Positions 1-36,319 of a stretch of DNA of 64,000 bases are shown piece after piece. How positions within the stretch are numbered: the first letter of the stretch is position 1; the number at the start of each line of letters is the position of its first letter. The position numbers and the translations under genes are program-made. Origin of the DNA: a phage; the sequence record PZ166176.1; one strand, written 5' to 3'. The notes under the pieces are model-generated. The model searched no databases. It was not told the DNA's origin and was given only the letters and a program-made list of their open reading frames with translations.

Positions 1-258
1 ATTCGTTTAAGGTGGAACACTAGGGACGAGTCTTGGCAATGTCAGATGGGATTATCTGGAGATGATCCAAGTATAAGTTTCAAAGTTACAAATGGTTTAG
101 ATCTTCTTAAACCTTATAAATATCTTGAAAGTGTTCCAGATGGTCAATTGTATATAGTAGATACAGTTAAGATTAATGGTCGTCCTGGGTATACAACTAC
201 AGGTCGAGATAAACGTTTTGTATTGGTTTATATTGATAACAAACCTAATCAGGCGTAA
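1..258 (+). CDS. 3' end of a CDS that begins upstream of the window (probable virion structural protein)
   Basis: Frame of the 46..258 ORF stays open back to position 1; sits at the head of the baseplate module. Confidence 0.4.
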   Translation: MRLRWNTRDESWQCQMGLSGDDPSISFKVTNGLDLLKPYKYLESVPDGQLYIVDTVKINGRPGYTTTGRDKRFVLVYIDNKPNQA

Positions 259-267
259 GGAGATAAT

Positions 268-1278
268 ATGGCAGAAAGAGAGTATACAAAAGCTCCTGCC
301 CCTAATTTAAACAGGGCATACAAATTATTAATTGGTTCTGCCACAAACACAATACAGAAGAGAACTAAGAACTCGGCATTTAAATCTACAGTAGATTTGG
401 ATACCAAGTTAGGGACAACAGAAAAATCCTCTTCTAATTTGTATTTGTTGCAAGACCATCAAATAACCTTCAGCATTAAGAAAGATAATAACAAAGATCC
501 TAACCAAGCAGAGATTGTAGTTTATAACCTTTCGGATGATACTGTTAATTATATAAACCGTGGTATCCGAAATAACTTGGCTGTTGCTTTAGCGGTAGGA
601 TACGAAGGTGAAGAGTTGGTTATGATCTTCAAAGGAACTATCCAATGGGTTAGTGATACTTTTGACTCGGTAGACAGGAAAACCACTTTACACTGTTTGG
701 ATGGCGGTATTAACATTGCAGAAGCAAGAACAAGCCGCAGTTATCCAAAAGGAACTAAAATCAAACGTGTTGTGACAGATTTGGTAAAGGATTTAGGAAC
801 TACAGAAGGTAATATACACGTAGATAATGATCAAACCTTATCTTCAGCAACAGCTATGTGTGGAAACACTTCACATTACCTAGAACATATTTGTAAAAGT
901 ATTGATCACAATGTGTCAATACAAGATGGATCTGTTTATGTTACTCCTCGTTCACAAATGTCTAGTGCACGTAGCGCCTATATTAGCCCTGAAACTGGTC
1001 TGATAGGAAGTCCAGAACCATTCCACAACGATATAAAACCTACTAAAAAAGTTACCAAGTCCTCTAAGAAGGCAAAGAAACCTACAGATGGTGTTAAATT
1101 CAAATGCCAAATGAATGGTGCAATATTACCAGAAAAAACAATCTGGTTAAAAAGCCGAGATTATGACGGTCCATTTAAAGTTGTTTCTGTTTCTCACAAT
1201 GGTGATAAAGAGGGTAAAGAGTGGGTTACTGAAGTGGAGTGTGTATCCGTGTCTGAAATAATGACTAAGGAGAAATAA
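268..1278 (+). CDS. putative baseplate hub / tail structural protein
   Basis: 336 aa ORF with AGGAG RBS, immediately upstream of the spike gene; no diagnostic motif seen, function is from position only. Confidence 0.4.
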   Translation: MAEREYTKAPAPNLNRAYKLLIGSATNTIQKRTKNSAFKSTVDLDTKLGTTEKSSSNLYLLQDHQITFSIKKDNNKDPNQAEIVVYNLSDDTVNYINRGIRNNLAVALAVGYEGEELVMIFKGTIQWVSDTFDSVDRKTTLHCLDGGINIAEARTSRSYPKGTKIKRVVTDLVKDLGTTEGNIHVDNDQTLSSATAMCGNTSHYLEHICKSIDHNVSIQDGSVYVTPRSQMSSARSAYISPETGLIGSPEPFHNDIKPTKKVTKSSKKAKKPTDGVKFKCQMNGAILPEKTIWLKSRDYDGPFKVVSVSHNGDKEGKEWVTEVECVSVSEIMTKEK

Positions 1279-2012
1279 TGGATGCATTGAATTTTGTCAC
1301 AGCAATGCGTGGCTTAATGACAGAACAATTAGCAGAAGTCCATACAGCCTTGCCAGTCCGTGTGACTGGTGTTAATTATGGTGCTAAAACTGTCACTTTA
1401 GAATCTATTGTTAAAAACACACGATCTAGTGAAGATGAAATAGATTATCCAACTTTCGAAGATGTTCCTTTCATGGTTAATGGTGGTGGGACAGGAAGAA
1501 TCTCATTCCCTATTAAAGCTGGCGATTTAGGAACTGTTATATTTTCTGAAAGAGATCCTTCTAATGCACTGCAAACTAGTGGGGAAACCTCTTCATCATC
1601 CACTTTTATGCAGCCTTGTGGATTATACCCTATTTGTTTTATTCCCAAAATAGCTACAGGAACAGATTCAACAGAAGCTGTAGATTCTGAAAAGGTAGTT
1701 ATTTCTAATAACAAAAACACGTACGCTTCTTTCGACCCTACAGGTAATATTTCAATATGGAATAGTCAAGGGATGAAAATAGATATTACTACCTCCGGTA
1801 TTACTATTACAGATGGCACAGGAACTTTGGATCTAAAAGGTGGTAATTTAACTTTCAAAGGCGGCGTGGCAGATATCAATGGTCTTAAAATAGACCAGAA
1901 CGGTTTGATGACAGATGGTAATGGCATCGGATTCCATACTCACACGCACACGGTTCGTAACATTCAGAGCGGTAACTCAAGTGCCGAGTCCTTAAAACCA
2001 ACAGGAGCCTAA
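1278..2012 (+). CDS. baseplate central spike protein (P2 gpV / phi92 gp138-like) with His-rich tip
   Basis: 244 aa; TAATG overlap with the upstream gene; C-terminal GIGFHTHTHTVRN resembles the HxH metal-binding tip of membrane-piercing spikes. Confidence 0.55.
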   Translation: MDALNFVTAMRGLMTEQLAEVHTALPVRVTGVNYGAKTVTLESIVKNTRSSEDEIDYPTFEDVPFMVNGGGTGRISFPIKAGDLGTVIFSERDPSNALQTSGETSSSSTFMQPCGLYPICFIPKIATGTDSTEAVDSEKVVISNNKNTYASFDPTGNISIWNSQGMKIDITTSGITITDGTGTLDLKGGNLTFKGGVADINGLKIDQNGLMTDGNGIGFHTHTHTVRNIQSGNSSAESLKPTGA

Positions 2013-2013
2013 C

Positions 2014-2637
2014 ATGGGAATCCCTTTTGACTTAAAGCTTGGACCAAACAACGACCTCATCATGGACGATGGGGATTTGGTCCTCACCACAACCAGAACA
2101 GAAATTGCAGCACAAACTCTTGGGATAACTCTGAACACGTATCGTGGAGAGTGGTTTTTAAATACTAACTTCGGTGTTCCTTACTTACAAGAGATTATTG
2201 GTGTTGCTAGAAAGAAAGATATTGTAGACAGAATATTTTTAGCGGAGATTGCCAAAAACGTTTACATAGATACAATAAACAGTTATAAATCTGCTTACGA
2301 CATGGACCAACGTTATTACTCAATGACAGTTATGGTGACAGTTGGAGCAGATACAGTAACATCCATATTCAATACTCAACCTTCTGAAGAGTTTATTTAC
2401 CCTGAAGCTGGTGAAGACAATGCAGCGATCATTTGTGAAGCTTACAGTATTGTTGAGAATTCGAATAGACTTTATCGCTTTATCAACTTTGTTGGTTTGC
2501 CACGTGATACCTACTCTACTTGGTGGAATGAATGGTCTACAGAGTCAGCAGGGGAAAGAATCATGGTTAACGAAAAAGGTGATGCATTAGCTACAAACAA
2601 TAATTTCGGTATAACAGCTATGACAGGAGTAGAATAA
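2014..2637 (+). CDS. baseplate wedge protein (gp25 / gpW / XkdS-like)
   Basis: N-terminal FDLKLGPNNDLIMDDGDLVLTT...EIAAQTLGITLNTYRGEWFLNTNFGVPYLQEI fits the DL-x-GDL...GEW pattern of gp25/W-like baseplate proteins. Confidence 0.45.
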   Translation: MGIPFDLKLGPNNDLIMDDGDLVLTTTRTEIAAQTLGITLNTYRGEWFLNTNFGVPYLQEIIGVARKKDIVDRIFLAEIAKNVYIDTINSYKSAYDMDQRYYSMTVMVTVGADTVTSIFNTQPSEEFIYPEAGEDNAAIICEAYSIVENSNRLYRFINFVGLPRDTYSTWWNEWSTESAGERIMVNEKGDALATNNNFGITAMTGVE

Positions 2638-3110
2638 TGGCAGATTTAACTACGATCAAAGTTTCTGATCTTACACAAACAACCTCTGTATCTGATACAG
2701 ATTTCTTTGTAACAGATCAGGCTGGAATAACAAAGAAGACTTCTTTGAAAGTGCTGTTGAGTGGTGCAGGGGTAACTAGAAACCGTTTAAATGCACGTGG
2801 AACAGTAACTAGCACCTTGGCATTAGATATTAGTTCAGCAGAATATTTTTCGGCAACTTTATCTTCTGCAACATGCACAATTAGTTTTACTAATATTCCA
2901 GTAGCAACGAATGCAGTTTTAAACTTTACTTTAGCTTTGCGTCAAGGAAGTGGCGCAAATAAAGTCGTATGGCCTTCTTCTGTAAAATGGAGTTTTGGTC
3001 GTTCCCCAGTTTTGAGTTATCGTCAAGGTGCAACAGACACTTTTGAGTTTATCAGTTATGATAATGGTGCAACTTGGACAGGTAGCTTAGTTTTAGCAGG
3101 AGTTATTTAA
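2637..3110 (+). CDS. hypothetical virion protein
   Basis: 157 aa ORF with ATGA-type overlap inside the baseplate operon. Confidence 0.45.
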   Translation: MADLTTIKVSDLTQTTSVSDTDFFVTDQAGITKKTSLKVLLSGAGVTRNRLNARGTVTSTLALDISSAEYFSATLSSATCTISFTNIPVATNAVLNFTLALRQGSGANKVVWPSSVKWSFGRSPVLSYRQGATDTFEFISYDNGATWTGSLVLAGVI

Positions 3111-5986
3111 TGTCAAGAGTTAAGCACAATATTGACAACACGTTTCAGTTGATTGAAGGGTTGGTTCAGTTTTTGGAAAGAAATACTGGGCTTACCATAG
3201 ATCCTACGGTTCAGCATTACATTATCAACCCACAAAACGTATTGGCGAACAACAGACACTTTATTAACTGGACAGCGCAGGAAGGGCAACCAAACGGTGA
3301 CGCTACTACCGAAGGTCAATCTGTGCTTATCACTGGTTTTGCTTATGCATATTTGGCTACAGGGGATAAAAAATATCTTGAATCTGCCGAGAAGTATTGG
3401 CAAGCCTATATAGATCACTTCTTCGGGGGCCAACCTATTCCTGATCCTCCGGCTAAGTATCGTCCCAACTGGATCATCAATGGTAAAGAACCACGTTTAG
3501 CACATTACCCTCTCACAGATGATGGGTATCCTACGCACGGTGGGTTCAAAGGTAGCATGATGACTTGGATTAACGGAAGGACTGTTATTCCTAAAGGTGC
3601 ACCGCATTGGGGGGAATACTTAGATAAAGCTTGGTTTGCTTTCAATGGCAATCTTGGTTGGAACTCCGTTAACGCAACAGTTTATGCAACTAATCCAGAT
3701 GGTTCAACCAACTGGAAAGAATATGGAGATCAGTGGGACGTTGAATGGATTATAGATCGTCTAGGACGTAAAGTTGATTGGGATGGTAACATTTTATCTA
3801 CAGATCACAGCTTCGCAGAATATGGAACAGTGCAACTTAAAAATGCTTCTGTGAACGGTGATTATAAATTCAACTACGCTACATGCAACCCTGTAGAACA
3901 CGGTGGATATCTGCTTAAGCGTAATGAGATGTGGCATAACCGTCCTGTAAACGTTCCGGTAGAGTTAGGTTATCAAGATAATGCTTCCGATGCTGAAACG
4001 TGGTGGTGTGATGCAAACTACTTGATGTATCAGATCACAGGAGAGAGAAAATACTGGCTTTGCTGGCAATCTTCTTTATTGTTGTGTCAAGACTACTCAA
4101 ACATCGATATGTTTGATAAATTCTTCCGTAGATCTACGACAGCAATAATTCCTTTTACAGATGGTATCTCGTATGATTACTCATACCCATCTACAGCAAT
4201 ACCTAAATATTCTCGTGACGAATTAGGATACACAGTAATTCGCCAAGATGTTTCAGCACAAACAACTCTAGAACAACAGGCAGTTTGGTTCAGAGTAGAT
4301 CAGAATTCAAAACTGCGTATTGAGTTTCAAGGTGTAGATGATGCAGGGGAAGGTGTTCTTTTCCGTCCAGAGCTAGAATTAAGCAAAACTAAGAGTGAAA
4401 CAGACACAGTGACATATCGTTGTGGCTTACCTCTTGGTGCAGCTAATATGACTAAGATGGATATACCTTTATCTAGTTTTATGCGCACCGAACCTCCTGG
4501 AGGTGGTGTATATATTATTGCTGAACCCAGAATTATTGTTGACTGGGGAAGCAATACTGTGATACAATATAAATATGCAACTGGTATTGCTGGGACAAAT
4601 AGTGATCAGATAGTTTCTGCTAATATGGATTCAGATGGTGGTTTTACTGTTGGGTTTTGGTTAACACCAACTAAAACAGCCAATTTAAAATCTATTACAT
4701 ATCGTTCATACGCAGATGATTTTAACATCACTATTACGGATTCCGCAGGTTGGAGATGGTGGGCCATGTTAGAAAAAACAAATTCTGCATGGGTTACTAA
4801 AGCTTTAAGTCCTGCTGATTTCAAATTAAGCACTTGGCAACCCAATCATAACGACACAGAGACAAAACCTTCGTCAATAAACCTGACTGCTGTTGATCAG
4901 ATCAACATTGCATTGGATTCTGAACCTGCAAATGGCTTGACAGGGGCAATCGATTTTTATTGTGTTAACGATATCCCATCTTTGTATTCTTCAGCCGCTG
5001 GTGATGATTACACAATGTATTTCAGGGTTACAGTTTCATCTGAAAATCCTTATACAGCAAAACTTGGAGATTGTACAATACTGGACTATAAACTTGACAG
5101 TTTGAATTATACTCCAGGAATCATTCCATTTTCCAATATTAGTGATCCTAACACAGCATTATATGACGGTTGGCGTGGTATTCCTTACCCAGGTTATCAA
5201 TACCCATCCTTATATTGTTTTAAAGGGAGAGATATTGACTGGGTTCGTATGAACAACAGTATAGACTTTTTATATGATTCACAAATGTGGTTTTATAATA
5301 AGTTTGCCCCTGTAATGCCTGGGCCAATGGCACAAGCTTATGTTTGGGATCGTTGGGATGCTCATAAATATGGAAACAAAAATGAGTTCACAATGTATCA
5401 TTGGAACGATAAAGCTTGGGATGGTTATGAAGCACGAGCATTCTTCTGTGCGTGTCATACGGTATACGAACTAAAGCGACGAGGAGCCGAAGTTCCTGAA
5501 AAACTTTTAACAGTTTGTAAAAACTGGATCAACTACCTGAAGTGGTTCCAAGATAACAACGAAGGAAGAACACCAACAATATTTTATCCCAACGGAGAAG
5601 TGGCTGCGCCTGTAGATGACTTTACAAGTCACATGTCTGCGCTCTTTATGGCGGGATGTGCTATAATGGGGATGGCTGGATATGATTCAGAAATTCCTAA
5701 CATTAAAATAGTAGCAGACCGCTGTTTTGAACTTATTCAGGAAAACTATATTGTTCTTGGTCCTAATCACGTTATGAATGGTTGTTGGAGTGCTGCTCCT
5801 AGACCAGACAGTGATAACGGAGTCTTCTTTGGCTTCCACGCTGGAGAGTTGTTACGTGGTTTTGGGTTGTATGCTTTATACAAAAAACTTAATCCCCAAA
5901 ATGCATTACCTGTTTTGGATTCGAGCAATATTCCTGCACTTACTGTTTTGACAATGGCAAACATTAGTGTGGACGTTACCGAGTAA
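3110..5986 (+). CDS. large baseplate/tail structural protein
   Basis: 958 aa uninterrupted ORF, translationally coupled to neighbours; rich in Trp, Tyr and Asn as in phage fibre and wedge proteins. Confidence 0.55.
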   Translation: MSRVKHNIDNTFQLIEGLVQFLERNTGLTIDPTVQHYIINPQNVLANNRHFINWTAQEGQPNGDATTEGQSVLITGFAYAYLATGDKKYLESAEKYWQAYIDHFFGGQPIPDPPAKYRPNWIINGKEPRLAHYPLTDDGYPTHGGFKGSMMTWINGRTVIPKGAPHWGEYLDKAWFAFNGNLGWNSVNATVYATNPDGSTNWKEYGDQWDVEWIIDRLGRKVDWDGNILSTDHSFAEYGTVQLKNASVNGDYKFNYATCNPVEHGGYLLKRNEMWHNRPVNVPVELGYQDNASDAETWWCDANYLMYQITGERKYWLCWQSSLLLCQDYSNIDMFDKFFRRSTTAIIPFTDGISYDYSYPSTAIPKYSRDELGYTVIRQDVSAQTTLEQQAVWFRVDQNSKLRIEFQGVDDAGEGVLFRPELELSKTKSETDTVTYRCGLPLGAANMTKMDIPLSSFMRTEPPGGGVYIIAEPRIIVDWGSNTVIQYKYATGIAGTNSDQIVSANMDSDGGFTVGFWLTPTKTANLKSITYRSYADDFNITITDSAGWRWWAMLEKTNSAWVTKALSPADFKLSTWQPNHNDTETKPSSINLTAVDQINIALDSEPANGLTGAIDFYCVNDIPSLYSSAAGDDYTMYFRVTVSSENPYTAKLGDCTILDYKLDSLNYTPGIIPFSNISDPNTALYDGWRGIPYPGYQYPSLYCFKGRDIDWVRMNNSIDFLYDSQMWFYNKFAPVMPGPMAQAYVWDRWDAHKYGNKNEFTMYHWNDKAWDGYEARAFFCACHTVYELKRRGAEVPEKLLTVCKNWINYLKWFQDNNEGRTPTIFYPNGEVAAPVDDFTSHMSALFMAGCAIMGMAGYDSEIPNIKIVADRCFELIQENYIVLGPNHVMNGCWSAAPRPDSDNGVFFGFHAGELLRGFGLYALYKKLNPQNALPVLDSSNIPALTVLTMANISVDVTE

Positions 5987-5994
5987 GGGGTAAA

Positions 5995-8148
5995 ATGAAA
6001 CAAGCTATATTTACTGTCACGCGAGACAAGAGAGTAAATGCGAGTTCATTTAACTACACGACTGTTGACGGAACAGCAGTCGCTGGTAGAGATTATATTG
6101 CAAAATCGGGAACACTTGTGTTCCCTGATGATGCGGATTCTGCTACTATTGTGGTTGAAGTATTTGAACGACCAAAGAACTCAATAGATCTTAACTTCTC
6201 CCTCCAAGTTTCAGGGATTAGTCAAAATAACATGATGGTTGAAACGACCATTAATTGTATTATAACTACTATCCAAGAAAATACTACTCCAATAACTTGG
6301 ACTACAAAAGACGTTAAAATGTTCTCTCCTATGTATTGGACAATAGATTCTCAAGCAACGGAAAGTTGTTCTATTGTATCTCATGGAGACTCTTTTACTG
6401 CAAGATTTGTAAACAGAACAACAGCAGGTTTGGCAGGGGTTATCTGGAGCACAGTTGACAAATATGACCATAAAGGTGTTGGGTATTTGCCTCACACAGA
6501 TTTAAGTTCAGAGAAACTTTGGTTTAAAATGGAAATTAGTCAAAACATGCCAGGTTTTAAAGAAGAACCTTTGGTGCCGACTTTGACTGTAACTCTCCTG
6601 GATAAAAGTGTTCATTATGTCAGTTTAGGATTCTACGCTTCAGATATTTCAGAAGATGGTAAAACAGCCACAATAAAGTTAGATTTTGGTAATATCTTTT
6701 CTGGCCCTAATAATGATATTCCTTTGGATATGAGTGCTGTAGATAATATTTTCTTCTCTTTGATTACAGCAAGGTATGAAGAAATAGAAGAGATTATACC
6801 TATTGCCAGTCAAGAGGCTTGGTTTACTTTCACTCTTCTTGAACCTACTTCTGGTTACAGTATGATGAAAGTCAGCAACCTTGTCCAGCCTGAACATGAT
6901 ATTCGCATGTGCACATCTTATGATGATATGTATAACCTGACTCCAGAGAGAGTTATTTATAATACATATGCACTAGGTTATCGTGGAATGATTAACCATT
7001 ACAACGGAATGTCTCACTATTATGAGTTCTCATGGAACGGAACATCTTGGGCTTTAAATAGATCTGTTTTCCTGAATCCGGCTACAGAAGCTTGGCTTAA
7101 CAGTTTCCATTCTATAGCTAATGAAAATGGCTACACAATAATGAACTCTTTGAGTTTTGAGTTGATGAGCACAGTTTGTCCTGTTGAATGGGTCCAGCAT
7201 GATTGGAACGATGCTCTTGCAGCAACAGGGTATAAGCCTCCTAGTTACGTGTTGTCTCCAACTATTGACGAAGGCATGGAATATTTGCAAAATGTTATTA
7301 ACAAAATAGCATCTATTTCTCAAGCTAATAACATTCCAGTCGTAATTCAAATTGGTGAACCTTGGTGGTGGTATAATACAGCAAGTAAAATGCCTTGTAT
7401 ATATGATTACACTACCAAACTGGCATTCAATACAGAAACAGGCTTATTTGCACAAGACGCAGGAACAATAGATAATTATAAAACAGGAACACCATTTGAC
7501 GAATACTATGCATTTTTGTCTCGTAAACTAGGGTTAAGAGTTACAAAGTTTGCAACAGACACCAGAGCAACTTATCCTGGAGCTAAAGTAACATTGCTTC
7601 CGTTCTTACCGTCAATTATTGGCAACGGTTTGATGGAGAAAGTTAACTTCCCGTCTGATTACTACATTCCTGAAGCTTTTGATTTTTACTGTTCAGAGTG
7701 TTACGACTGGCTTCTGGAAGGTAAAATGATGAAAGCATTCGATGCAATTACCATACCACATGAAAAATTAGGTTTTGAATATTCTGATATTCACTATCTT
7801 TCGGGTTTTGTTCCAGATGCTACTCTTGCACCTTTGTATGGCTTCGATCCTGAATCAAACTACCGCACGTATCTTTGGAAAATGATTATAGGTAATATAG
7901 TGTTGAACGCCAATAAGTTCAATGGGCTTACACAATATATATGGGCCTATCCTCAAATAATGCATGATTCCATCACGGTAGTTAATTCTCAATCCCAAGT
8001 TTTCTATATGGGTAATGTGCCTTTGAATTGTTATTTGCAAGATATCACTCTTAAACAAGCAAATGTTGAGATTGCTACCATAAGTGGAATTACATTAGCT
8101 ACTAAATCTGGAGAAGATTTAGTAACAACACAAAAATTTTATATATAG
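5995..8148 (+). CDS. structural protein with N-terminal Calx-beta domain
   Basis: 717 aa; N-terminus TVTRDKRVNASSFNYTTVDGTAVAGRDYIAKSGTLVFPDDADSATIVVEVFERP matches the Calx-beta signature (T-x-DGTA-x-DY...G-x-L-x-F). Confidence 0.55.
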   Translation: MKQAIFTVTRDKRVNASSFNYTTVDGTAVAGRDYIAKSGTLVFPDDADSATIVVEVFERPKNSIDLNFSLQVSGISQNNMMVETTINCIITTIQENTTPITWTTKDVKMFSPMYWTIDSQATESCSIVSHGDSFTARFVNRTTAGLAGVIWSTVDKYDHKGVGYLPHTDLSSEKLWFKMEISQNMPGFKEEPLVPTLTVTLLDKSVHYVSLGFYASDISEDGKTATIKLDFGNIFSGPNNDIPLDMSAVDNIFFSLITARYEEIEEIIPIASQEAWFTFTLLEPTSGYSMMKVSNLVQPEHDIRMCTSYDDMYNLTPERVIYNTYALGYRGMINHYNGMSHYYEFSWNGTSWALNRSVFLNPATEAWLNSFHSIANENGYTIMNSLSFELMSTVCPVEWVQHDWNDALAATGYKPPSYVLSPTIDEGMEYLQNVINKIASISQANNIPVVIQIGEPWWWYNTASKMPCIYDYTTKLAFNTETGLFAQDAGTIDNYKTGTPFDEYYAFLSRKLGLRVTKFATDTRATYPGAKVTLLPFLPSIIGNGLMEKVNFPSDYYIPEAFDFYCSECYDWLLEGKMMKAFDAITIPHEKLGFEYSDIHYLSGFVPDATLAPLYGFDPESNYRTYLWKMIIGNIVLNANKFNGLTQYIWAYPQIMHDSITVVNSQSQVFYMGNVPLNCYLQDITLKQANVEIATISGITLATKSGEDLVTTQKFYI

Positions 8149-8156
8149 GAGTAAAA

Positions 8157-10103
8157 ATGTCAACTACAATTACTAATTTACCCGAAACATCAAAAGTTAA
8201 TGGTTCTGATTACCTAGTTTTAGACCAATCTGATAAGACCGTTAAAAGCACAGTTTCTAACTTTCTTGCTGACACTGGGGTGGTTTTAGCCACCCAGTTG
8301 AAAGATACAAATGGAGCAGATTTAATACAATCCTCAAATGGTAATACTGTTCAGGAAGAGTTGAATAACAATCTTCTTAATGATCGTGAACAGTGGTGTC
8401 GTAGTCTTGCTGAGGCAGGGTTAACCCTTGTCAACGGTAGCTTTGAAGAAGGCGCTACATTAAATAATAAGACCGATGCTGTTTGGTATATTGCAGGCGG
8501 TCAGTGTTATTCATGGGATGGTGCACTACCTAAAGAAGTTCCAAATGGCTCAACTCCAGAAACATCTGGTGGTGTTGGTCTGGGTGCGTGGGTTAGTGTT
8601 GGTGATGCATCGTTGCGCACTGAACTTTCCTCTTTATCAGGGGCTAATCTTGTTGGGTATAGCGTTTCCATGAGATATAATGAAGAGACTGTTGGGTGGA
8701 TGTTAGAAAATCTCACCGACAGAGCTTTATCATCAAGTGATTTCCCTGGAGACGATGCCGGAGAACAAATAAATAACGGTCTTGATTTTTTACGCTCCCA
8801 GAATGAGAAATATAGACAAGGGGGAACATTAAACCTACCCAGAGAAACACTGAATGTATCGACACCGATTACACTCGACAGAACTCCAAGCGGTGCGCCA
8901 GATGAAAATGATGAATATACAATATCTGGCTCTGGAAAAGGAGGGACAGTACTGATAGCGGGTAATAGCTTCCCACCAGATAAAGCGGTTTTAACAACTA
9001 ACTCTGCTAATGGTAATGCGGTTCAAGGTTTTAAATTAAAAGACTTTTCCATCAGGGGTGGCAAAAACGGACTTCGTATTGAAACCGCATCAAGAAGTAT
9101 AATAGACAGCATCAAAGTTTCGGGATCAGGTTCGGACGGTATTTATGTAGGTAATAGCTGGGTCAATCTTTATAGTCAGGTGCTTGTAGATTCAAGCGGT
9201 GGTAATGGAATTACGTTCGATAATAGTCTACAAAAAACAAGCACAACAGTACTTTCAGGATACCAGTTAAAAAACAAGGGGTCAGGTTGGGATTTTGGTT
9301 TTATGAACTATTCAGTGGCAATTGCCACTGCTTCAGATCAGAACTCACAACATGGCTATAAAATATCAAGGTCGGAAGGATTTGTTCTTATATCTCCGGG
9401 AGCGGAAAGCAACGGGGGTGCTGGTATATTAGCTGAGGCATCAACATCTTTAGGGGAAAACAAGAGCGTCCTAATTCAAGGAGCTTTTTGCCACAATAAT
9501 AATAAGATAGGTACTTACGCGAATCTTTTATATGCGGTGAGTACTGCTAACACAATAAACCGTGTAAAAATAACAGATAGCACAGCACATTCCAGCCCTG
9601 TAGGTTCTCCAGATGTTGTTGCTGATGGGAACGAATGCGTTGTCACAATAGATAACTGCGTACTACCTAACGGCTGGGAATCCAGAAATGGTGGATATAT
9701 TGACTGGGTTCATCATACCCTATATGTACAGAAACCAGGAATCACAGGGGCAACAGCCATATGCAACTTAAGAGGAACTCAGGGGCACGGTAGAAATGAA
9801 GCTTCTGCTTCTGATAGTTTTGCTGGGGAAGTAACCATAGTAGCAAGTCCATTAGCGCCTTCAACAGCGACAAGACGACTTGCTATCTATAAACTTTTTA
9901 TTTGCGTAGCAGCGGATACCGGCGTTCAATGCGAAGTGATAAAACAATTGGGTTACGTATCTGGAAATGTTCCAGGTTCGCCAAGTTTCACATGGAGCAT
10001 CGGTTCATCTCATGAATTGATAGCAACCCCAATAGGGTCTACAGCCGGAACGTTCTATTTTGAAATCACAACGGATTCGCAAGTTGTAGCCCTCAAAAGA
10101 TAA
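8157..10103 (+). CDS. tailspike/tail fibre protein with right-handed beta-helix (depolymerase-like)
   Basis: 648 aa; N-terminal fibre-attachment motif (PNGSTPETSGGVGLGAWVSVGD) shared with ORFs 14789 and 17904; Gly/Asn/Ser-rich beta-helix-like repeats; hairpin terminator follows. Confidence 0.6.
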   Translation: MSTTITNLPETSKVNGSDYLVLDQSDKTVKSTVSNFLADTGVVLATQLKDTNGADLIQSSNGNTVQEELNNNLLNDREQWCRSLAEAGLTLVNGSFEEGATLNNKTDAVWYIAGGQCYSWDGALPKEVPNGSTPETSGGVGLGAWVSVGDASLRTELSSLSGANLVGYSVSMRYNEETVGWMLENLTDRALSSSDFPGDDAGEQINNGLDFLRSQNEKYRQGGTLNLPRETLNVSTPITLDRTPSGAPDENDEYTISGSGKGGTVLIAGNSFPPDKAVLTTNSANGNAVQGFKLKDFSIRGGKNGLRIETASRSIIDSIKVSGSGSDGIYVGNSWVNLYSQVLVDSSGGNGITFDNSLQKTSTTVLSGYQLKNKGSGWDFGFMNYSVAIATASDQNSQHGYKISRSEGFVLISPGAESNGGAGILAEASTSLGENKSVLIQGAFCHNNNKIGTYANLLYAVSTANTINRVKITDSTAHSSPVGSPDVVADGNECVVTIDNCVLPNGWESRNGGYIDWVHHTLYVQKPGITGATAICNLRGTQGHGRNEASASDSFAGEVTIVASPLAPSTATRRLAIYKLFICVAADTGVQCEVIKQLGYVSGNVPGSPSFTWSIGSSHELIATPIGSTAGTFYFEITTDSQVVALKR

Positions 10104-10106
10104 AAA

Positions 10107-10133
10107 CAACCCCGCTTCGGCGGGGGGTTCTTA
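10107..10133 (+). terminator. rho-independent terminator candidate
   Basis: CCCCGC-TTCG-GCGGGG hairpin followed by TTCTT, just after the stop at 10103. Confidence 0.55.
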
Positions 10134-10152
10134 GAAAAACAAAGAGGTACTT

Positions 10153-10464
10153 ATGAACGAGATGTTCTCACAAGGTGGTAAAGGTTCAACTGGAATCTTA
10201 ACCAATAAACAAGCAGTAGCCCGTCACTTTGGAGTTAAACAATCTGAGGTTGTTTACTTCTCAGTTGGTGCACTGCTTGATGGGTACAAAGTTATCTATG
10301 ATAAGGAGACGCAAAGGGCGTATTCCCTACCTGCTGATATTGCCCCAGGTACTATTGCCATTAGTCTTAGTGCTGCCGGAGTATTAGTTCACTCTGCGGG
10401 TAATGTGGACCTTGGGGAATTAGCTGTATCTCGTGATTTAAAAAGTAATGAGAACGCACTATGA
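10153..10464 (+). CDS. hypothetical protein
   Basis: 103 aa ORF with RBS, between tailspike and baseplate genes. Confidence 0.4.
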   Translation: MNEMFSQGGKGSTGILTNKQAVARHFGVKQSEVVYFSVGALLDGYKVIYDKETQRAYSLPADIAPGTIAISLSAAGVLVHSAGNVDLGELAVSRDLKSNENAL

Positions 10465-10703
10465 GAAAATTTTTAATAGGTATGTTCTGTACATATCCTG
10501 ATAATAAAGTCAGTTCTACGAAAGTCTGGAACGCTGTAGGCATGTCGGTTATGACAGGCATGTTTATCTTTTTAGGAATAGAAAAAGAAATTCCTGAATG
10601 GATGGGTTGGGCTTTTGTTTTCATGATAACTCCTTCTCGCCTCATGAAAAATCTTATTGATTTACGCTGGGGCAGATCACAATCTACCAAAGAGGATGAC
10701 TAA
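10461..10703 (+). CDS. hypothetical small membrane protein
   Basis: 80 aa with a hydrophobic segment (GMSVMTGMFIFLGI); ATGA overlap with the upstream ORF. Confidence 0.4.
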   Translation: MRKFLIGMFCTYPDNKVSSTKVWNAVGMSVMTGMFIFLGIEKEIPEWMGWAFVFMITPSRLMKNLIDLRWGRSQSTKEDD

Positions 10704-12190
10704 TGGACGAATATGGTTTGACAGATGCGGGATTTGTAATCCCGACTTTTGACGATGTTTTAAACAACTACATGACAGCAGTAAAAAACACATTTGGTGC
10801 AGATGCAGCCACTTCGGAAGATACTGTGATCGGACAACTGTTTAGAATAATTGCATACACAGATTACACATTGTGGGAAGGTATGCAAGGTGTTTACAAT
10901 ACTCAAACACTGGATGGTGCAGAAGGTATTTATCTTGATGAAATCTTTTCTAAACGCGGTTTCTATCGAGCAGGGGCAGCAGCAAGTACAGGTTATGCAT
11001 ATGTTAAGAGTAATAACAAAGCAGCTTGGACTTATGAGCTAGGCACGGATATTTACTTCAACTCTGATAGTGATATGAACTACTATGTTAGCACACCAAC
11101 TATGTTGAATGCTAAGATTGCAGCTTATCAAATCTCTCGTGCTAATGCAACTGCTACAGGTGTTCCAAATATTACTTTTTATGCACAAAGTGCGGTGGAT
11201 GGAGGACTAAACAGTAAAACACTTGCACCTGGTTCTTCTACATTTATAACCGATCTTGAAACTTTTATCAAGGCGAATTTAACAGAAGCTGATCGTAGTC
11301 TTGTATTTTCTGATTCAGGTAACTTATCAATTGGTTTTACTTCTTTAACCAGCGATACTCCAGTGGGACTAGTAACTCCTATCAAATTTTATGCCAGTGT
11401 TCCAGTTGGAACCAAATGGAGTGAAATTCCAGTAGTTGCAGCAGAGAAAGGATACAATCCTGTTGGTGTGGAGTCTATTACAGGGATATCTTCTACCTTT
11501 ACAGGTTATCTTGACAGTGGTAACTTTTATTCATTTTCTCCTGGTCGGGATGTTGAGACAGATGCAGAATTCCGCTCTCGTTTCAATGACAACGTTGATG
11601 AAGCTAACGCAGGGACACGAGCAGCTATTGTGAAAGCTCTGTTACTTACAGATGGTGTTACTAAGGTGAAGATTTATGATAACCCTACGTTACATGATCA
11701 AGAACACGCTCCAGCTATGACTTTCCAGACTATAGTTTATGGTGGCAGTGCAGAAGAAATTGCAAATGTTATCTATAAAACCAAACCAATCAACACTTTG
11801 ACACACGGAACAACTAACATAACAGTTACAACAGAAGATGGAGGACAAGAAATTATTCGCTTCTCTCCTGGTGCTTCTGCTATGTATTCCGTAAAACTTG
11901 TTTATCAAACTGTCAACGGAACAACTTTAAGTGGAACAGAAAAACAAAACATCGTAGAAGCTTTACAAAACCTGCAAGCTTACTTTGAGTTAGGTTCTTC
12001 AGTAACGAACGATCAAATCAAAGGTGTTATTTATGCAGCACTTGCTTTTGGACGCTTGACTTCTCTTCGTGTTTATGTTAAACTTAATACTGAGGATGAC
12101 AGTAAATATACAGAGAATAATATAGTTCCTGCTTATAATGTTGTCCCTTCTTTTGACCTTGATAACATTTCTTACGAGTATGGAGTGTAA
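10703..12190 (+). CDS. baseplate wedge protein, gpJ / gp6-like
   Basis: 495 aa; N-terminal region and gene order (followed by a gpI-like protein and a fibre) resemble the baseplate J family. Confidence 0.45.
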   Translation: MDEYGLTDAGFVIPTFDDVLNNYMTAVKNTFGADAATSEDTVIGQLFRIIAYTDYTLWEGMQGVYNTQTLDGAEGIYLDEIFSKRGFYRAGAAASTGYAYVKSNNKAAWTYELGTDIYFNSDSDMNYYVSTPTMLNAKIAAYQISRANATATGVPNITFYAQSAVDGGLNSKTLAPGSSTFITDLETFIKANLTEADRSLVFSDSGNLSIGFTSLTSDTPVGLVTPIKFYASVPVGTKWSEIPVVAAEKGYNPVGVESITGISSTFTGYLDSGNFYSFSPGRDVETDAEFRSRFNDNVDEANAGTRAAIVKALLLTDGVTKVKIYDNPTLHDQEHAPAMTFQTIVYGGSAEEIANVIYKTKPINTLTHGTTNITVTTEDGGQEIIRFSPGASAMYSVKLVYQTVNGTTLSGTEKQNIVEALQNLQAYFELGSSVTNDQIKGVIYAALAFGRLTSLRVYVKLNTEDDSKYTENNIVPAYNVVPSFDLDNISYEYGV

Positions 12191-12192
12191 AA

Positions 12193-12822
12193 ATGGCAGT
12201 GAGTGTTGACCATGTAACAACTTGGGCCAGTATCAATGAAGATGTTAAAAACCTTCTGATTGAAGATTTTAAATCTTCTCCTAACATTGTCAAGCTCCTC
12301 TACATCGTATCCAGTGAAAAGCAAAAGATAGATCAGGCAATGATCTATCTTGCTAAACACCGCTTGATCTCTACAGCCACAGGCAAATACCTAGATATTC
12401 TAGGGGAAGAAATGGGGATCGAACGTAATGGCTCTGATGATGAAGAGTATAGAACAATATTAAAAATCAGGGCTTACCGCGTAGCCTCATCGGGGACTCG
12501 TGGTGACATAATTGATATCTTCGCCCGTTTCACAGGAACAGAGCGTGAAACGCTTAATACTTACGTAGGTTTGAATAAAACCTTTGATGTGTTTTTCTAC
12601 AACCTGTGTCTTCAATCTGATCAAGCTTTAGAGCAGTTGCTAAGTGTTTTCCCTATTATTAGTAGCTACCGTCTTGGAGCAAAAGCAGGATCAGCTTTTG
12701 GTTTTAGTTCTTATTATGCTACCAAACCGCCTCATGGTATTGGTGGTTTAGGTTCCCTGTACATGGAATCTACTGGGGATGAAACAGGACGCATGTGTAC
12801 GCTTCTCAAGCAAATAGATTAA
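12193..12822 (+). CDS. baseplate/tail protein, P2 gpI-like
   Basis: 209 aa; GKYLDILGEEMGIERNGSDDEEYRTILKIRAYRVASSGT resembles the conserved core of tail protein I family; sits directly after the J-like gene. Confidence 0.4.
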   Translation: MAVSVDHVTTWASINEDVKNLLIEDFKSSPNIVKLLYIVSSEKQKIDQAMIYLAKHRLISTATGKYLDILGEEMGIERNGSDDEEYRTILKIRAYRVASSGTRGDIIDIFARFTGTERETLNTYVGLNKTFDVFFYNLCLQSDQALEQLLSVFPIISSYRLGAKAGSAFGFSSYYATKPPHGIGGLGSLYMESTGDETGRMCTLLKQID

Positions 12823-12831
12823 GGAGTTTAA

Positions 12832-13893
12832 ATGGCGAAGCCAATATATTATCCTGACTGGGCTACACAAACTGTAACGCTCCCAGGAACTTTAAACACA
12901 AACAAAATTAGACCTAAAGAAACCATCCGCACAGTTGGTATGGATTATGGTCAAATCATGACTTGCGAAGAAATGAACTGGATTCTTAATAATATCGGTT
13001 TATGGATTCGCTATTTGGTGGATGACTTTCTTCCAACTTTGCCTGATACTTACTTGCCTTTAGTGGGAACTAAGATTACAATGGCTGGTGACGCTACTGG
13101 TGAGGCTACTTGGAATGGTAACAAAGAAGTTACTTTATCTATCCAGGTTCAAGATAACAGTCATAATCACTTGTCGGCAAACATTACAGATGCCACTAGT
13201 TCAACAGTAACACCAAACGTGCTGGTAAAACGTGATGCGGGTGGTGCTATTTATGGTGGCGATGTTTATGTTAACGGTACTTCCACAACAGATCCTGCAA
13301 CACTGTTCTTCAAAAACTTTGCAGGACAAACAAATGGTGAGATTTCTGCCGAGTATCAAAGCGGAGGTCAGCTTTATATTTATCGTAGAAATCCTAGCAC
13401 AGGTAGTGTATCGGCAGGTGTTCGTTTATATGATGCAGGTTATGTTCTAATAGATAATCCAAGATCAAACAGTGGACAAGATACTTCTAACGGAAATGCT
13501 TTAGTTCGTTTAGATTATCTGAACTCTCGTTTGACTTCCCTTCAGAACACATTGCAGACGAATATTAACACTGTTCAAAATAACTTGAATAATGTTAACA
13601 GCAACCTTTCTTCCCGTATAAACAATGTAGAAAGTAATCATCAAAGTCAGATTACAAATAACTACAATTATGCTAACGGAACCTTTGTAAGAGATATTCG
13701 TTATACTAGCCAAGGTGTGTATTATCCACCAGGGAACGAGGTTTCTTGGACTTATATCTGTTCTTCTGGTTATGTTCTTTCTGGTATTATCGTACAGGAA
13801 ACAGGACGTAGTTCTGCGGATAACATCGGTGGGGTTTATTTCAAACGCCTCCAGCGCAACGTTAACGGAAACTGGTACGATATCGGAGGCTAG
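12832..13893 (+). CDS. tail fibre protein with Asn-rich coiled-coil
   Basis: 353 aa; heptad-like segment LDYLNSRLTSLQNTLQTNINTVQNNLNNVNSNLSSRINNVESN. Confidence 0.5.
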   Translation: MAKPIYYPDWATQTVTLPGTLNTNKIRPKETIRTVGMDYGQIMTCEEMNWILNNIGLWIRYLVDDFLPTLPDTYLPLVGTKITMAGDATGEATWNGNKEVTLSIQVQDNSHNHLSANITDATSSTVTPNVLVKRDAGGAIYGGDVYVNGTSTTDPATLFFKNFAGQTNGEISAEYQSGGQLYIYRRNPSTGSVSAGVRLYDAGYVLIDNPRSNSGQDTSNGNALVRLDYLNSRLTSLQNTLQTNINTVQNNLNNVNSNLSSRINNVESNHQSQITNNYNYANGTFVRDIRYTSQGVYYPPGNEVSWTYICSSGYVLSGIIVQETGRSSADNIGGVYFKRLQRNVNGNWYDIGG

Positions 13894-13894
13894 A

Positions 13895-14440
13895 ATGAGA
13901 TTTACAAATTTTAAAAGATATATTCCCGAAGATCCCGAACTAAAAGAATTGGTAGAAGTAGAGAACATTCTTTTTCTTCGTTGCGATCAAGGTTACGATT
14001 GGTATGATTTACGTAGCACAGAATTCAATAACGATAAAATGAAAGTCGTTTTTGACGATCAAAATCGTATTGTGTTTTGGAATACTGATCCTACACTACT
14101 TTGCCCTGAAGATCTTTCTATAGCACAAGTAGACTTTAATATAGATACTTTTGAGGATATTAGGAACAAGGTTCTGGATTTAGAAACCTTAACTCTTAAG
14201 GATAAAGAGTATTCCCGTGAAGAGTTGATGACACAAGCTAGTGCAAAAATTCGCTCTTTACAAGAAACAGCGGTAGCACTTATAACACCTTTACAGTATG
14301 CTAAAGATTTAGAAATGGCTACTGAAGACGAATTAGCTTATCTTAAAAATCTTCAAGTTTATGTAGTTAAACTAAATCGTGTTCCGCTTCAAAAAGACTA
14401 TCCTTACGCTATAGATTGGCCTACATTACCGACAGAATAA
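13895..14440 (+). CDS. putative tail fibre assembly protein / chaperone
   Basis: Start moved to the ATG right after the upstream stop (track start 13715 overlaps the fibre gene); position and size fit a Tfa-like chaperone. Confidence 0.4.
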   Translation: MRFTNFKRYIPEDPELKELVEVENILFLRCDQGYDWYDLRSTEFNNDKMKVVFDDQNRIVFWNTDPTLLCPEDLSIAQVDFNIDTFEDIRNKVLDLETLTLKDKEYSREELMTQASAKIRSLQETAVALITPLQYAKDLEMATEDELAYLKNLQVYVVKLNRVPLQKDYPYAIDWPTLPTE

Positions 14441-14449
14441 GGGATCACT

Positions 14450-14785
14450 ATGGAATTTCAAGAAGCATGGGGACTTGCAAAGGATGCAATAATCCCTTTA
14501 ATCGGAGTCATCTGGTTCTTTTTCAAACAAAAAATGGATAAATTCGGCTCTGATCTTGAGGAAATGGAGGAGAAAAGTCGAGAGCTAGAGAAGAAGTTGG
14601 TCTTTGTTGAATCAACTTATGCAACTAAAGCCGAACTTACCCAGATGCTAAATCAAATTAACTCTACATTAATGGCAAATAATAACACCCTTGAGCAAAA
14701 AATTGAAAAGATTATGGACCTCAAGAATGCGACTATCCAAATGATGCTAGATGACATAGTTAAACGTACACAGAATAAGGGGTAA
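14450..14785 (+). CDS. membrane-anchored coiled-coil protein
   Basis: 111 aa; N-terminal hydrophobic helix (AIIPLIGVIWFFF) then a charged coiled-coil. Confidence 0.4.
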   Translation: MEFQEAWGLAKDAIIPLIGVIWFFFKQKMDKFGSDLEEMEEKSRELEKKLVFVESTYATKAELTQMLNQINSTLMANNNTLEQKIEKIMDLKNATIQMMLDDIVKRTQNKG

Positions 14786-14788
14786 TTA

Positions 14789-17700
14789 ATGGCAACATTC
14801 CCAACATATCCAGCAACGTCTCTCGAACAGGGCGTAGACCTGGTTATTTTCTCATCTAACCAACTCCATGATGTTATTAATGGAAGTGCTACAGAGAGTA
14901 TTGAAACAGAATCAGGGTTGATACCAACCCTGAGAAAAGCCCTTGTTGACAACTTTTTCTTTAAAAGCCCATTGGATTGGGCGCAAGGCACAAACGAAAC
15001 AGTTTTTAACCAACTTCGTTATTTCCAGAATGGAGTATTGAGCGGTTATTACTATGCCCCTAACGCTACATTGGTTAACCCAATCCCTATGCAAGGGACT
15101 CCAGTAGGAGATAACAACTGGGTATTGTGGGGACTGAAGACAGAACAATTGGCAACAGAAGTCACCCCTTGGGTATATTCTGGTGCAACTGGTTATGAAA
15201 CAGTAATTAGTCCTCCTTACATCTTTGATAGTGCTATTGTTACGATCAATGGTGTTATTCAGGTTCTGGGGGAAGCTTTCCGTATAGAAGACAGTAAGAT
15301 CATCTTATCTGAACCTTTGGGACACGATCCTGCAACAGGACTGCCAAACAAGCTTTTTGCTTATATTGGTAAAATCGTAGCTTCAGCAGATACAGATCCT
15401 AATCTAGAGAACCGTCTTGTTAGTTTAGAAACAAAAACGGAAGAACTAACAGAAAGCATGGATAAAGTCCCTCTGCAAGCTATTGCTCGTAAGTATGGTT
15501 TGTTAGATGATGAGGTGGCTTACGCAACAGCAGGTCAATCGTTAACAGGGATTAAAGCTCTGTATGATCCGGTAGCACAGTCTTCCTACACATTACCTCC
15601 TAACATCACAGGAACTTTAACATCCTTATCTGTTTCTGGAGTAATGACTTATTCTGGAGGATCTGTAGACCTTTCTGCACTGGCTGTTGAGCGTGGACAG
15701 TTTGTTCATTTGCCTACAAGCTTTGGTAATAACGTAACTCTGACAGCTAAAAATCAGACGATTGGACGTGGTGCTGGTCGTTATCGTTGGGCTGGAAGTT
15801 TACCAAAAAGTATTTTGGCCTCTGATACATTGGAGACAAGCGGAGGATTAGGTCCAAATGCATGGGTTCTGACTAATACAGAAGGACTGTTAACCCCTCG
15901 TGGTGGAACATACAACGATCTATTCGATGTTGTCTACTTGTCAGAATTTGCTAACAATACAACTACCTATACCACACCAGAAGCAGCTTTCCAGGCGGCA
16001 CTGTTAGCAGCAAAAGCTTCGAAAAGCAAGATTCTCGATGCTTACGGTTGCGACATGACTTTCACGACAAGCTCTTTTGATATTCAAGATATCACTTTGC
16101 GTGGTGGTGTGTTCCGTGGTCAACGCGACTATCGTGTGCAGAATGCTACAGTAGAAGGCACAACTTTCCGTAACTCTCGTGTTATGTATTGGGGTGGTGC
16201 TGTGCGCATGTTCGATTGTTTGTGGGACGGTGCTCCTCGCGCAGGTCAAGTTGGTAGCTTGGTATTCCAAGGCAACCCAATATCAGGTACTTTTGAAATT
16301 GATAATTGTACTTTTAAAAACGGGTTATATGGCATTCTTCAACAAGGAACAGGGGAACCAGTAACACGCGGTGTCTTCCGTAACCTTACCTTCATGGACA
16401 TGCAAGGTGATGCAATAGAACTGAACGTCATCAATAAACATTATGACGATGGTTGTGTGATTGAGAATATTTACCTGTCTAATATCGATGGGACTAACGC
16501 TCCTATTCCTCTGTCCAACTGGGGTATCGGTATCGGTGTAGCTGGTAAAGGACCATATGGTTACGGAATCCCTGATGATCAATATTGTAAGAACATTACA
16601 ATTCGTAACGTTTTTGCAAAACGTTGTCGTCAGATTGTCCACGTAGAAGTTGGTCGTAATATCTCTATCGAAAACATTCATGGCGATCCAGATCAAACCG
16701 TATCTGTTGGGACAGGTTTGGCAACTGGCGCAGTTGTAATGTATGGAAGTAAAGACTTTACGATTGATGGTGTTTATGGAGAGCCTAAAACAGACGGTAG
16801 CACACTTGCAAGTAATATCCGTATGATTTACTTGGAGTGGGGAACTAACGCAGTTCTGGATGAAGAGGGTAATCCGGTAGTTCCGGCACAGGGCAGACCT
16901 TCAAACCCATGCTTTAACTATTCTGTTCGTAACATTCACACCAAAACTGGGCGTGTTTTTGCGGGAGTTTCCGCTGGGCCAGGTTATGAAAACAGAGTTA
17001 GCTTTGAAAATATTCGTTGCGCTGCCTTGCAGTTGTTCGGTATAGCTTCTTGGCTTTCAATGTCTAACATCACCTGTAATATCTTCGATTGTGTTGGTCA
17101 ACCTGAATCTGGTCCAGGGACATTTTATGATGGATTCTTCCGTAGAGAAAAATCTGTTCTTGAAATGGTTAACGTAAACTGTTACCCAGATGGCAAGACG
17201 ATGGTTACTGGTCGTCCACAGTGGAGCCGTTGCCGTTACTCGGATATTCATCGTGTCAACTGTAATGTTGAAGCTAATATGTATACCAATATCGCAGGTG
17301 GTATTGGAGCTATTGTAGGGACAACGGGCAAAGTTTATTACTTAGAGCCTAATCCTAGTCGAAACATTGATGGAATGCATTTCCCAACAGGGAAAGAGTT
17401 TGACAAAGGGGATATGATAGTCAAGGCGGATAATACGTTCTTCCTTGTAACAACAAGTGGGGCATATATTCCAGATATCCCAGCTTTCGGTATTCGAGCT
17501 ACACAGGCAGGAGATACCTTCCTGACACAGAACTTGACTCCTAACGGGACAGCAACAAATGCTTCTTGGTTGTATCATTACCCTCTGTCAGCAGGGACAC
17601 GTATCCGTATTCCTGGCGCTGGTGTAGGTGGAGCAGATTTGGACACAGTTATTACTCGTGCACCTTATCAAGATAATGATACGTGGACTAACCCAGTTAA

Positions 17701-17842
17701 AATAGACATTGCAGATCCAATTGTAACGCCTACAAGTGCTGGAGTTAGAATTAAAACCATACCTAATGATTCCAGTAATGTTTCTGTAGGTAATACTGCG
17801 GTTATTCGCCCAACGCCAGTAGTAGATGTGCCAACAACCTAA
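14789..17842 (+). CDS. tailspike protein with beta-helix (candidate polysaccharide depolymerase)
   Basis: 1017 aa; shares the SDTLETSGGLGPNAWV motif with the other fibre genes; long Gly/Asn/Val-rich repeats typical of pectate-lyase-like folds. Confidence 0.6.
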   Translation: MATFPTYPATSLEQGVDLVIFSSNQLHDVINGSATESIETESGLIPTLRKALVDNFFFKSPLDWAQGTNETVFNQLRYFQNGVLSGYYYAPNATLVNPIPMQGTPVGDNNWVLWGLKTEQLATEVTPWVYSGATGYETVISPPYIFDSAIVTINGVIQVLGEAFRIEDSKIILSEPLGHDPATGLPNKLFAYIGKIVASADTDPNLENRLVSLETKTEELTESMDKVPLQAIARKYGLLDDEVAYATAGQSLTGIKALYDPVAQSSYTLPPNITGTLTSLSVSGVMTYSGGSVDLSALAVERGQFVHLPTSFGNNVTLTAKNQTIGRGAGRYRWAGSLPKSILASDTLETSGGLGPNAWVLTNTEGLLTPRGGTYNDLFDVVYLSEFANNTTTYTTPEAAFQAALLAAKASKSKILDAYGCDMTFTTSSFDIQDITLRGGVFRGQRDYRVQNATVEGTTFRNSRVMYWGGAVRMFDCLWDGAPRAGQVGSLVFQGNPISGTFEIDNCTFKNGLYGILQQGTGEPVTRGVFRNLTFMDMQGDAIELNVINKHYDDGCVIENIYLSNIDGTNAPIPLSNWGIGIGVAGKGPYGYGIPDDQYCKNITIRNVFAKRCRQIVHVEVGRNISIENIHGDPDQTVSVGTGLATGAVVMYGSKDFTIDGVYGEPKTDGSTLASNIRMIYLEWGTNAVLDEEGNPVVPAQGRPSNPCFNYSVRNIHTKTGRVFAGVSAGPGYENRVSFENIRCAALQLFGIASWLSMSNITCNIFDCVGQPESGPGTFYDGFFRREKSVLEMVNVNCYPDGKTMVTGRPQWSRCRYSDIHRVNCNVEANMYTNIAGGIGAIVGTTGKVYYLEPNPSRNIDGMHFPTGKEFDKGDMIVKADNTFFLVTTSGAYIPDIPAFGIRATQAGDTFLTQNLTPNGTATNASWLYHYPLSAGTRIRIPGAGVGGADLDTVITRAPYQDNDTWTNPVKIDIADPIVTPTSAGVRIKTIPNDSSNVSVGNTAVIRPTPVVDVPTT

Positions 17843-17848
17843 TGGAAT

Positions 17849-17873
17849 AGAGGGGGATTCCCCCTCTTCTTCC
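17849..17873 (+). terminator. rho-independent terminator candidate
   Basis: AGAGGGGG-ATT-CCCCCTCT hairpin followed by TCTTCC, after the stop at 17842. Confidence 0.5.
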
Positions 17874-17903
17874 AATAGAATGGTCTAATGATAGGAGAGA
17901 TAA

Positions 17904-19928: not shown

Positions 19929-19930
19929 CA

Positions 19931-19958
19931 GAAGCCCCGAAAGGGGCTTTCTTTTTAT
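19931..19958 (+). terminator. rho-independent terminator
   Basis: AAGCCCC-GAAA-GGGGCTT hairpin followed by TCTTTTTAT. Confidence 0.7.
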
Positions 19959-19969
19959 GGAGGGTTTAA

Positions 19970-22642: not shown

Positions 22643-22643
22643 G

Positions 22644-22668
22644 AAAAGGAGCCAAATGGCTCCTTTCT
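22644..22668. terminator. bidirectional terminator at the convergence of the + and - blocks
   Basis: AAAGGAGCC-AAAT-GGCTCCTTT hairpin with T-rich flank on the + strand, between convergent genes ending at 22642 and 22670. Confidence 0.65.
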
Positions 22669-22669
22669 T

Positions 22670-23164
22670 TTATTCAGCGTTCAACCCTTCCCCATGTTCT
22701 TGATGCCAAGCTTCATGGTGCAGAGGACACAGCCATAGAACATCTAACGGTTTATCATAATCACAATGATGAGCATGAACATCAACAGACCCACACACTT
22801 GGCAAGGTTGTTTTACTAACTTTCCATCTCGGAGTGCGTTACCTACAGCTATATGAGCAGAACGTTTTTTCGGATTCTTTTCGATGTAACGTTTCTTAGC
22901 TTCATTAGCCTTATCTTTACCTTTCCCTTTTGCGTAAGCCTCTTTCAAAGCTTTGCGCTCTGGGGTCTGATCTCTGCTTTTATCATACTCTTTGTAATAT
23001 TCAGATTTATCTTTACGATTCTGTTTAACATCTTTCTTATTACATTCCTTGCATTTATTGACGTGACCGTCAGCCATAGCTTTATGTTTGTAAAATTCAG
23101 TGAGGGGCTTTAACACCCCACACTTGAAACAAACCTTAGAAGCAATGCAGGAAGTTTCGACCAT
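22670..23164 (-). CDS. HNH homing endonuclease
   Basis: C-terminal CQVCGSVDVHAHHCDYDKPLDVLWLCPLHHEAWH is an HNH motif; N-terminal Cys pairs (CFKCG...CKEC). Start moved to the internal ATG (MVETS) because the track start runs far into the SSB gene. Confidence 0.6.
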   Translation of the reverse strand: MVETSCIASKVCFKCGVLKPLTEFYKHKAMADGHVNKCKECNKKDVKQNRKDKSEYYKEYDKSRDQTPERKALKEAYAKGKGKDKANEAKKRYIEKNPKKRSAHIAVGNALRDGKLVKQPCQVCGSVDVHAHHCDYDKPLDVLWLCPLHHEAWHQEHGEGLNAE

Positions 23165-24068: not shown

Positions 24069-24084
24069 TATTATCTCCTCTACA

Positions 24085-24477
24085 TTACATTAATTTTGCA
24101 CAGAAAGAGCGGAGTCTTTCCATATCATCTTGCTCTAACAGGTATTTACCTTTACCTATTCCAACTCCAATTTCACCATTAGGGAAATGAACTATTTGCA
24201 CTGGAAAACCTCCGAGTTTAATTGTGGCAGCTTTGCCTTCTTCGTCTATAACGTTTCGGATTGTATCTTGCAGTGAAATGAATTCTTTGTTTGTAACAGT
24301 GGTTTCAATTATTTCAGATGTTTCAACACGAGCAGTTAGCTTCTTGTTTCCACCTTGAATAACCAAAATTTGAAAATAAAAAGAGTTGTCAAGACCTATA
24401 ACATTTTTCTCAACTAGTGTCAAACTGGTATAGTTTCCATAAACAGTTTCAACAGCTATCTTAGAACGTTCAGTCAT
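24085..24477 (-). CDS. hypothetical protein
   Basis: 130 aa ORF with RBS in the co-directional early block. Confidence 0.45.
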   Translation of the reverse strand: MTERSKIAVETVYGNYTSLTLVEKNVIGLDNSFYFQILVIQGGNKKLTARVETSEIIETTVTNKEFISLQDTIRNVIDEEGKAATIKLGGFPVQIVHFPNGEIGVGIGKGKYLLEQDDMERLRSFCAKLM

Positions 24478-24522
24478 TGAATGCTATCCTATCATAAAAT
24501 GTTTAATATTGTCAAGCTTTAA

Positions 24523-25327: not shown

Positions 25328-25337
25328 TGTTTTCTCC

Positions 25338-36318: not shown

Positions 36319-36319
36319 T

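Follow-up and report, generated by a model that had tools for sequence, protein, structure and literature searches.

The open reading frame at 1278..2012 on the + strand of the phage DNA analysed here (the window, 64,000 nucleotides) raises two questions: whether its product is the central spike of a contractile-tail baseplate, and whether the His-Thr-His-Thr-His run near the end of that product would hold a metal ion at the spike tip. The ORF list of the window gives a product of 244 aa. The original prediction had taken the histidine-rich tip of this protein as support for a spike assignment. That assignment is borne out on broader evidence, as the protein is orthologous to the phi92 central spike over its full length, carries an invariant HxH and places this motif in register with the Fe ligands of P2 gpV. 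Judged from sequence, whole-protein homology gives the assignment far firmer ground than the motif. Orthology, domain composition and domain order, the invariance of H222 and H224, and gene context were all observed directly. The ORF at 1278..2012 almost certainly encodes the central membrane-piercing spike, orthologous to the phi92 spike and with an Fe-caged apex; its trimeric state, its metal and its piercing role would be those of the solved homologues.

The gene and its surroundings are familiar. The first 8 kb of the window share 98-99% DNA identity with >60 GenBank records of phAPEC8-like E. coli myophages, and by sequence the window is assigned to such a phage of the genus Phapecoctavirus, subfamily Stephanstirmvirinae. 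Phages ESCO13, Schickermooser and EP57 encode exactly the same spike protein (100% identity), and the phAPEC8 copy (YP_007348534.1, G377_gp100), which RefSeq names 'baseplate spike', matches it at 99.6%. The spike gene had been annotated before and the structure of its apex motif has already been solved, making this a known system. A PHROGs scan of the spike returned no family at E<=0.01, though neighbouring genes were recognised. This result reflects a gap in the library and is not evidence contrary to the spike assignment.

The flanking genes encode other parts of the baseplate. The window opens within the C-terminal part of a Pam3 gp18-like baseplate plug protein (46..258, +), which is truncated by the window start. 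It is followed by the 336-aa baseplate hub, the seat of the spike (268..1278, +; PF22759; phrog_196). Downstream of the spike, the gene at 2014..2637 (+) matches a baseplate-wedge-subunit PHROG (hits phrog_4233 and phrog_120) and lies where phi92 has its sheath initiator gp139. The order of plug, hub, spike and next baseplate gene is that of phi92 gp136-gp139 (PMC13450770). Within 1276..1280, the last base of the TAA stop codon of the hub (1276-1278) is also the first base of the ATG that starts the spike (1278-1280), and this one-base overlap suggests that hub and spike are translationally coupled. The genes at 2637 and 3110 likewise abut or overlap their upstream neighbours.

The domain composition of the protein follows that of the phi92 spike from end to end. 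An N-terminal OB-fold domain, Pfam PF18352, covers aa 25-106 (1350..1595, +; E=8e-11, 42.3 bits vs a cutoff of 26.1), and a beta-helical trimerisation domain, Pfam PF21930, covers aa 140-216 (1695..1925, +; E=8.5e-32, 109.4 bits vs a cutoff of 27, profile positions 1-75 of 75). Both exceed their gathering cutoffs, which served as the Pfam threshold, and both are domains defined on the phi92 spike structure. The remainder, about aa 217-244 (1926..2009, +), corresponds to the apex domain as defined in PMC13450770. Searching the PDB by sequence gave a match to the phi92 central spike (3PQI, full length; 3PQH, a C-terminal fragment; 21VQ, cryo-EM) over aa 1-243 with E = 5e-117, with the HTHTH of the query aligned to the HTHTH of phi92; a profile search of the PDB gave the phi92 spike with E=1.7e-126. 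All sequence-level features that define the phi92-type spike family (PF18352, PF21930, end-to-end homology, HxH and gene position) are present, and the protein is accordingly classed, by homology, as a member of that family.

Structure prediction pointed in the same direction. The AlphaFold2 monomer model had a mean pLDDT of 70 and a pTM of 0.42. The beta-helix region was modelled as a series of short beta-strands with pLDDT 78-89, and the apex reached a pLDDT of only 41-54 (aa 221-244), too unreliable for cage geometry. When this model was used for a fold search with Foldseek, the top PDB match was 3PQI (E=3.6e-22). The next matches were all central spikes, namely those of PhiTE, SN Orf41, E217, Pa193, Pam3, R2 pyocin and P2 gpV, and VgrG structures appeared as remote fold matches only. 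With 71% identity to the trimeric phi92 crystal structure, the protein would form a homotrimeric needle.

The histidine motif lies where it had been predicted, with small corrections. FHTHTHTVRN is present at aa 219-228 (1932..1961, +) of the 244-aa protein, inside the span 1931-1975 originally given for it, although its first codon begins at 1932 and not at 1931. The protein had been said to end with this motif; instead, 16 further residues, IQSGNSSAESLKPTGA, lead to the C-terminus. The spike protein contains only four histidines (22, 220, 222 and 224), and three of these four fall inside the HTHTH run. Conservation was assessed in an alignment of 23 homologues, chosen from 42 found and with identities between 44% and 88%. 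All 23, including those at 44% identity, retain H222 and H224, whereas H220 is histidine in closer relatives only and gives way to N, D or A in others. The surrounding apex residues are mostly variable. Loss of histidine conservation had been named as an outcome that would refute the idea; the conservation held for two of the three histidines and failed for H220. The motif is not a chance feature, because two of its three histidines are invariant among homologues. Their invariance is conspicuous given the low identity of the apex to phi92 (about 53%, vs 71% for the whole protein).

Alignment with gpV, which had been proposed as a check, agreed with this picture. By hhalign, HTHTH was aligned with HTHKH of gpV, with H220, H222 and H224 in register with H195, H197 and H199, in an alignment that was weak overall (probability 25%). 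Since H222 and H224 are invariant and stand in register with the gpV Fe ligands H197 and H199, the conserved cage is best assigned to H222-T223-H224 (1941..1949, +), with H220 (1935..1937, +) outside it. The motif does lend support to the spike assignment, as a preprint regards a C-terminal HxH as usable for identifying a spike Apex domain (bioRxiv 10.1101/2023.02.25.529910). By analogy with the solved spikes, the His-Thr-His-Thr-His run probably represents the conserved metal-binding "histidine cage" of the spike tip, a real but ordinary feature.

Published structures provide the basis for a mechanism. In the crystal and cryo-EM structures of the phi92 spike, three HxH motifs coordinate an Fe ion at the apex (PMC13450770). 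The published Fe ligands of P2 gpV are H197 and H199, with three copies of this pair making up an octahedral cage (bioRxiv 10.1101/2023.02.25.529910). The phi92 structures 3PQI and 3PQH are from Browning et al. 2012 (Structure 20:326, cited in PMC13450770). Apex structure and metal binding were solved in 2012 for both phi92 and P2, and cryo-EM showed them again in 2026. Here, the phi92 ligands were assigned from the alignment, which puts H223 and H225 of phi92 opposite H222 and H224, together with the two later papers (PMC13450770; bioRxiv 10.1101/2023.02.25.529910). On the model of the solved homologues, three chains of the window protein would assemble into a needle. Their N-terminal OB-fold domains would be seated on the trimeric hub where the tail tube ends, their middle parts would intertwine into a triple beta-helix, and their last ~28 residues would form a conical apex. 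By homology, H222 and H224 of each chain would face the three-fold axis, where six imidazoles would hold one buried iron octahedrally; a single Fe ion at the apex is what PMC13450770 and Browning 2012 lead us to expect. The bound iron may make the tip stiffer and sharper. Upon sheath contraction, the spike would be pushed as a rigid body through the outer membrane, and after piercing it would dissociate and thereby open the tube (PMC13450770; Browning et al. 2012 cited there).

What the iron tip contributes to function is less certain than how it is built, because the apex and His cage of P2 are dispensable for infection under laboratory conditions (bioRxiv 10.1101/2023.02.25.529910). In that phage, efficiency of plating was halved only by an unfolded, bulkier tip (bioRxiv 10.1101/2023.02.25.529910). 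The two papers also differ in the oxidation state of the metal, which is Fe2+ in the P2 preprint (bioRxiv 10.1101/2023.02.25.529910) and 'ferric' in the phi92 paper (PMC13450770).

The alternative that survives best keeps the cage of H222 and H224 and gives H220 a role as well. All three histidines would then be used in the phAPEC8, phi92 and P2 lineages, with H220 forming a second axial site for an ion or water one layer above the Fe cage. Residues i, i+2 and i+4 of a beta-strand share one face, which would turn H220 towards the axis, and the window phage, phi92 and P2 gpV all have HxHxH, with H195 preceding H197 and H199 in gpV. However, N, D or A takes the place of H220 in many homologues, and both papers describe two histidines per chain and a six-His cage, and neither describes a second site that involves the first histidine (bioRxiv 10.1101/2023.02.25.529910; PMC13450770). 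We consider it unlikely that all three histidines serve in this way. The narrower proposal that H220 forms a second ion-binding layer on the axis, just above the Fe cage, in some lineages is rated slightly lower still. If true, such a layer would make for a two-metal or metal-plus-anion tip with differing stiffness or redox behavior.

In another reading, the spike would carry a PAAR-type protein as a separate cap, on the pattern of T4 gp5 or T6SS VgrG, and the His run would have a different function. PAAR caps are frequent on contractile-system spikes (general knowledge; bioRxiv 10.1101/2023.02.25.529910), but PAAR partners accompany spikes without a C-terminal HxH (bioRxiv 10.1101/2023.02.25.529910), and the spike here has one. 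Furthermore, the component list of the phi92 baseplate cryo-EM structure is without a PAAR protein (PMC13450770), and the apex of the window protein is collinear with that of phi92 up to the last residues. A capping protein is therefore very improbable here. The least credible reading takes HTHTH for an incidental low-complexity feature of CA-rich DNA ('cat act cac acg cac acg') that would lack any metal role. In its favor, positions 1935-1952 resemble an imperfect CAC/ACG repeat, and HxH alone occurred in 4.9% of 200,000 shuffles of the spike protein. Against it, HxHxH arose in only 0.04% of these shuffles, H222 and H224 stay unchanged across 23 homologues with identities as low as 44% while their neighbors vary, and in the solved phi92 and P2 structures the equivalent residues bind the metal (PMC13450770). 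This origin was rejected on the conservation of H222 and H224 and has next to no chance of being correct.

Near 22.7-25 kb, coding changes from the + to the - strand, and the tail module ends there. A tRNA scan of the 64 kb window (1..64000) found zero tRNA genes. The gene at 5995..8148 (+) encodes a 717-aa protein with Calx-beta, NCTSP_N and 'non-contractile tail sheath protein' TIM barrel domains, and these domains account for the odd 'non-contractile tail sheath' label in records of related myophages. Next to it, 8157..10103 (+) encodes a 648-aa tailspike with Tail_spike_N (PF18668), where the phAPEC8 counterpart at the same position is a 921-aa tail protein named 'putative endo-N-acetylneuraminidase'. 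The receptor-binding or depolymerase module seems unlike that of the type phage, which suggests a swap of the host-range module. Across 14 tail-module ORFs, HxH recurs only once, as SHNHL at aa 111-113 of a 353-aa tail fibre protein (12832..13893, +). By analogy with other phage fibres, it could form a putative fibre-type intermolecular His cage. Three more large tail fibre or tailspike genes occupy 14789..22642 (+). The first encodes 1017 aa with Tail_spike_N and matches the 'colanic acid degradation' gene of phAPEC8 by position and length, the second encodes 674 aa with Tail_spike_N and a collagen repeat, and the third encodes 890 aa with RCC1-like and Big_2 domains. Phi92-like phages are known for such a multi-fibre set, the 'Swiss army knife' arrangement.

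Herein, our analysis upholds the central spike gene call in the window phage and pins the metal ligands, by homology, to H222 and H224. The spike sequence brings no new biology, being identical to annotated GenBank proteins, and it does not advance the open question of the field, namely why the His cage is conserved despite its laboratory dispensability in P2. Spikes capped by PAAR, such as T4 gp5 and T6SS VgrG, lack an HxH apex of their own, in contrast to the spike here. The next-closest solved relative after phi92 is the PhiTE baseplate spike (PDB 9CUY chain Y), with a profile E=8e-25 and a Foldseek E=3.8e-12. It aligns to profile positions 20-224 and lacks HxH opposite the motif, reading 'GVDMDDFYQ' there, and the His cage is therefore not universal within the spike family.

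P2 gpV (PDB 3QR7/3QR8) shares the architecture of OB-fold, triple beta-helix and apex, with 3QR8 a fold match at E=5e-3. At 211 aa it is the shorter protein; its C-terminus, ...GKVLHTHKHPGDSGGTTGSPL, carries an LHTH.H run and extends 12 residues past the second cage histidine, vs 20 in the spike here. The window protein has no match to Pfam Phage_base_V, and gpV was absent from the PDB profile search. The spike works like gpV but lies outside the gpV sequence family, with the fold match and the weak apex alignment by hhalign as the links between them. At the other end of the scale, the 'baseplate spike' of phAPEC8-like phages (phAPEC8 YP_007348534.1, ESCO13, Schickermooser) is essentially the same gene, at 99.2-100% protein identity within a surrounding 8 kb of 98-99% DNA identity.

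The central spike of Escherichia phage phi92 (3PQI, 3PQH; cryo-EM 21VQ) is the closest solved counterpart. It is 245 aa long vs 244 here and collinear over aa 1-243, with a one-residue deletion in the beta-helix. Phi92 is a Justusliebigvirus and the window phage a Phapecoctavirus, placing them in the same subfamily and in different genera, and proteins of Justusliebigvirus (the phi92 group) are 71.4-71.8% identical to the spike by tblastn. The apex is more diverged: a hand count over aa 206-243 of the alignment gives about 53% identity, vs 71% for the whole protein. The two spikes nevertheless share both Pfam domains, the gene neighborhood and the HTHTH run, which reads GLHTHTHPVRG in phi92 and GFHTHTHTVRN in the spike described here.
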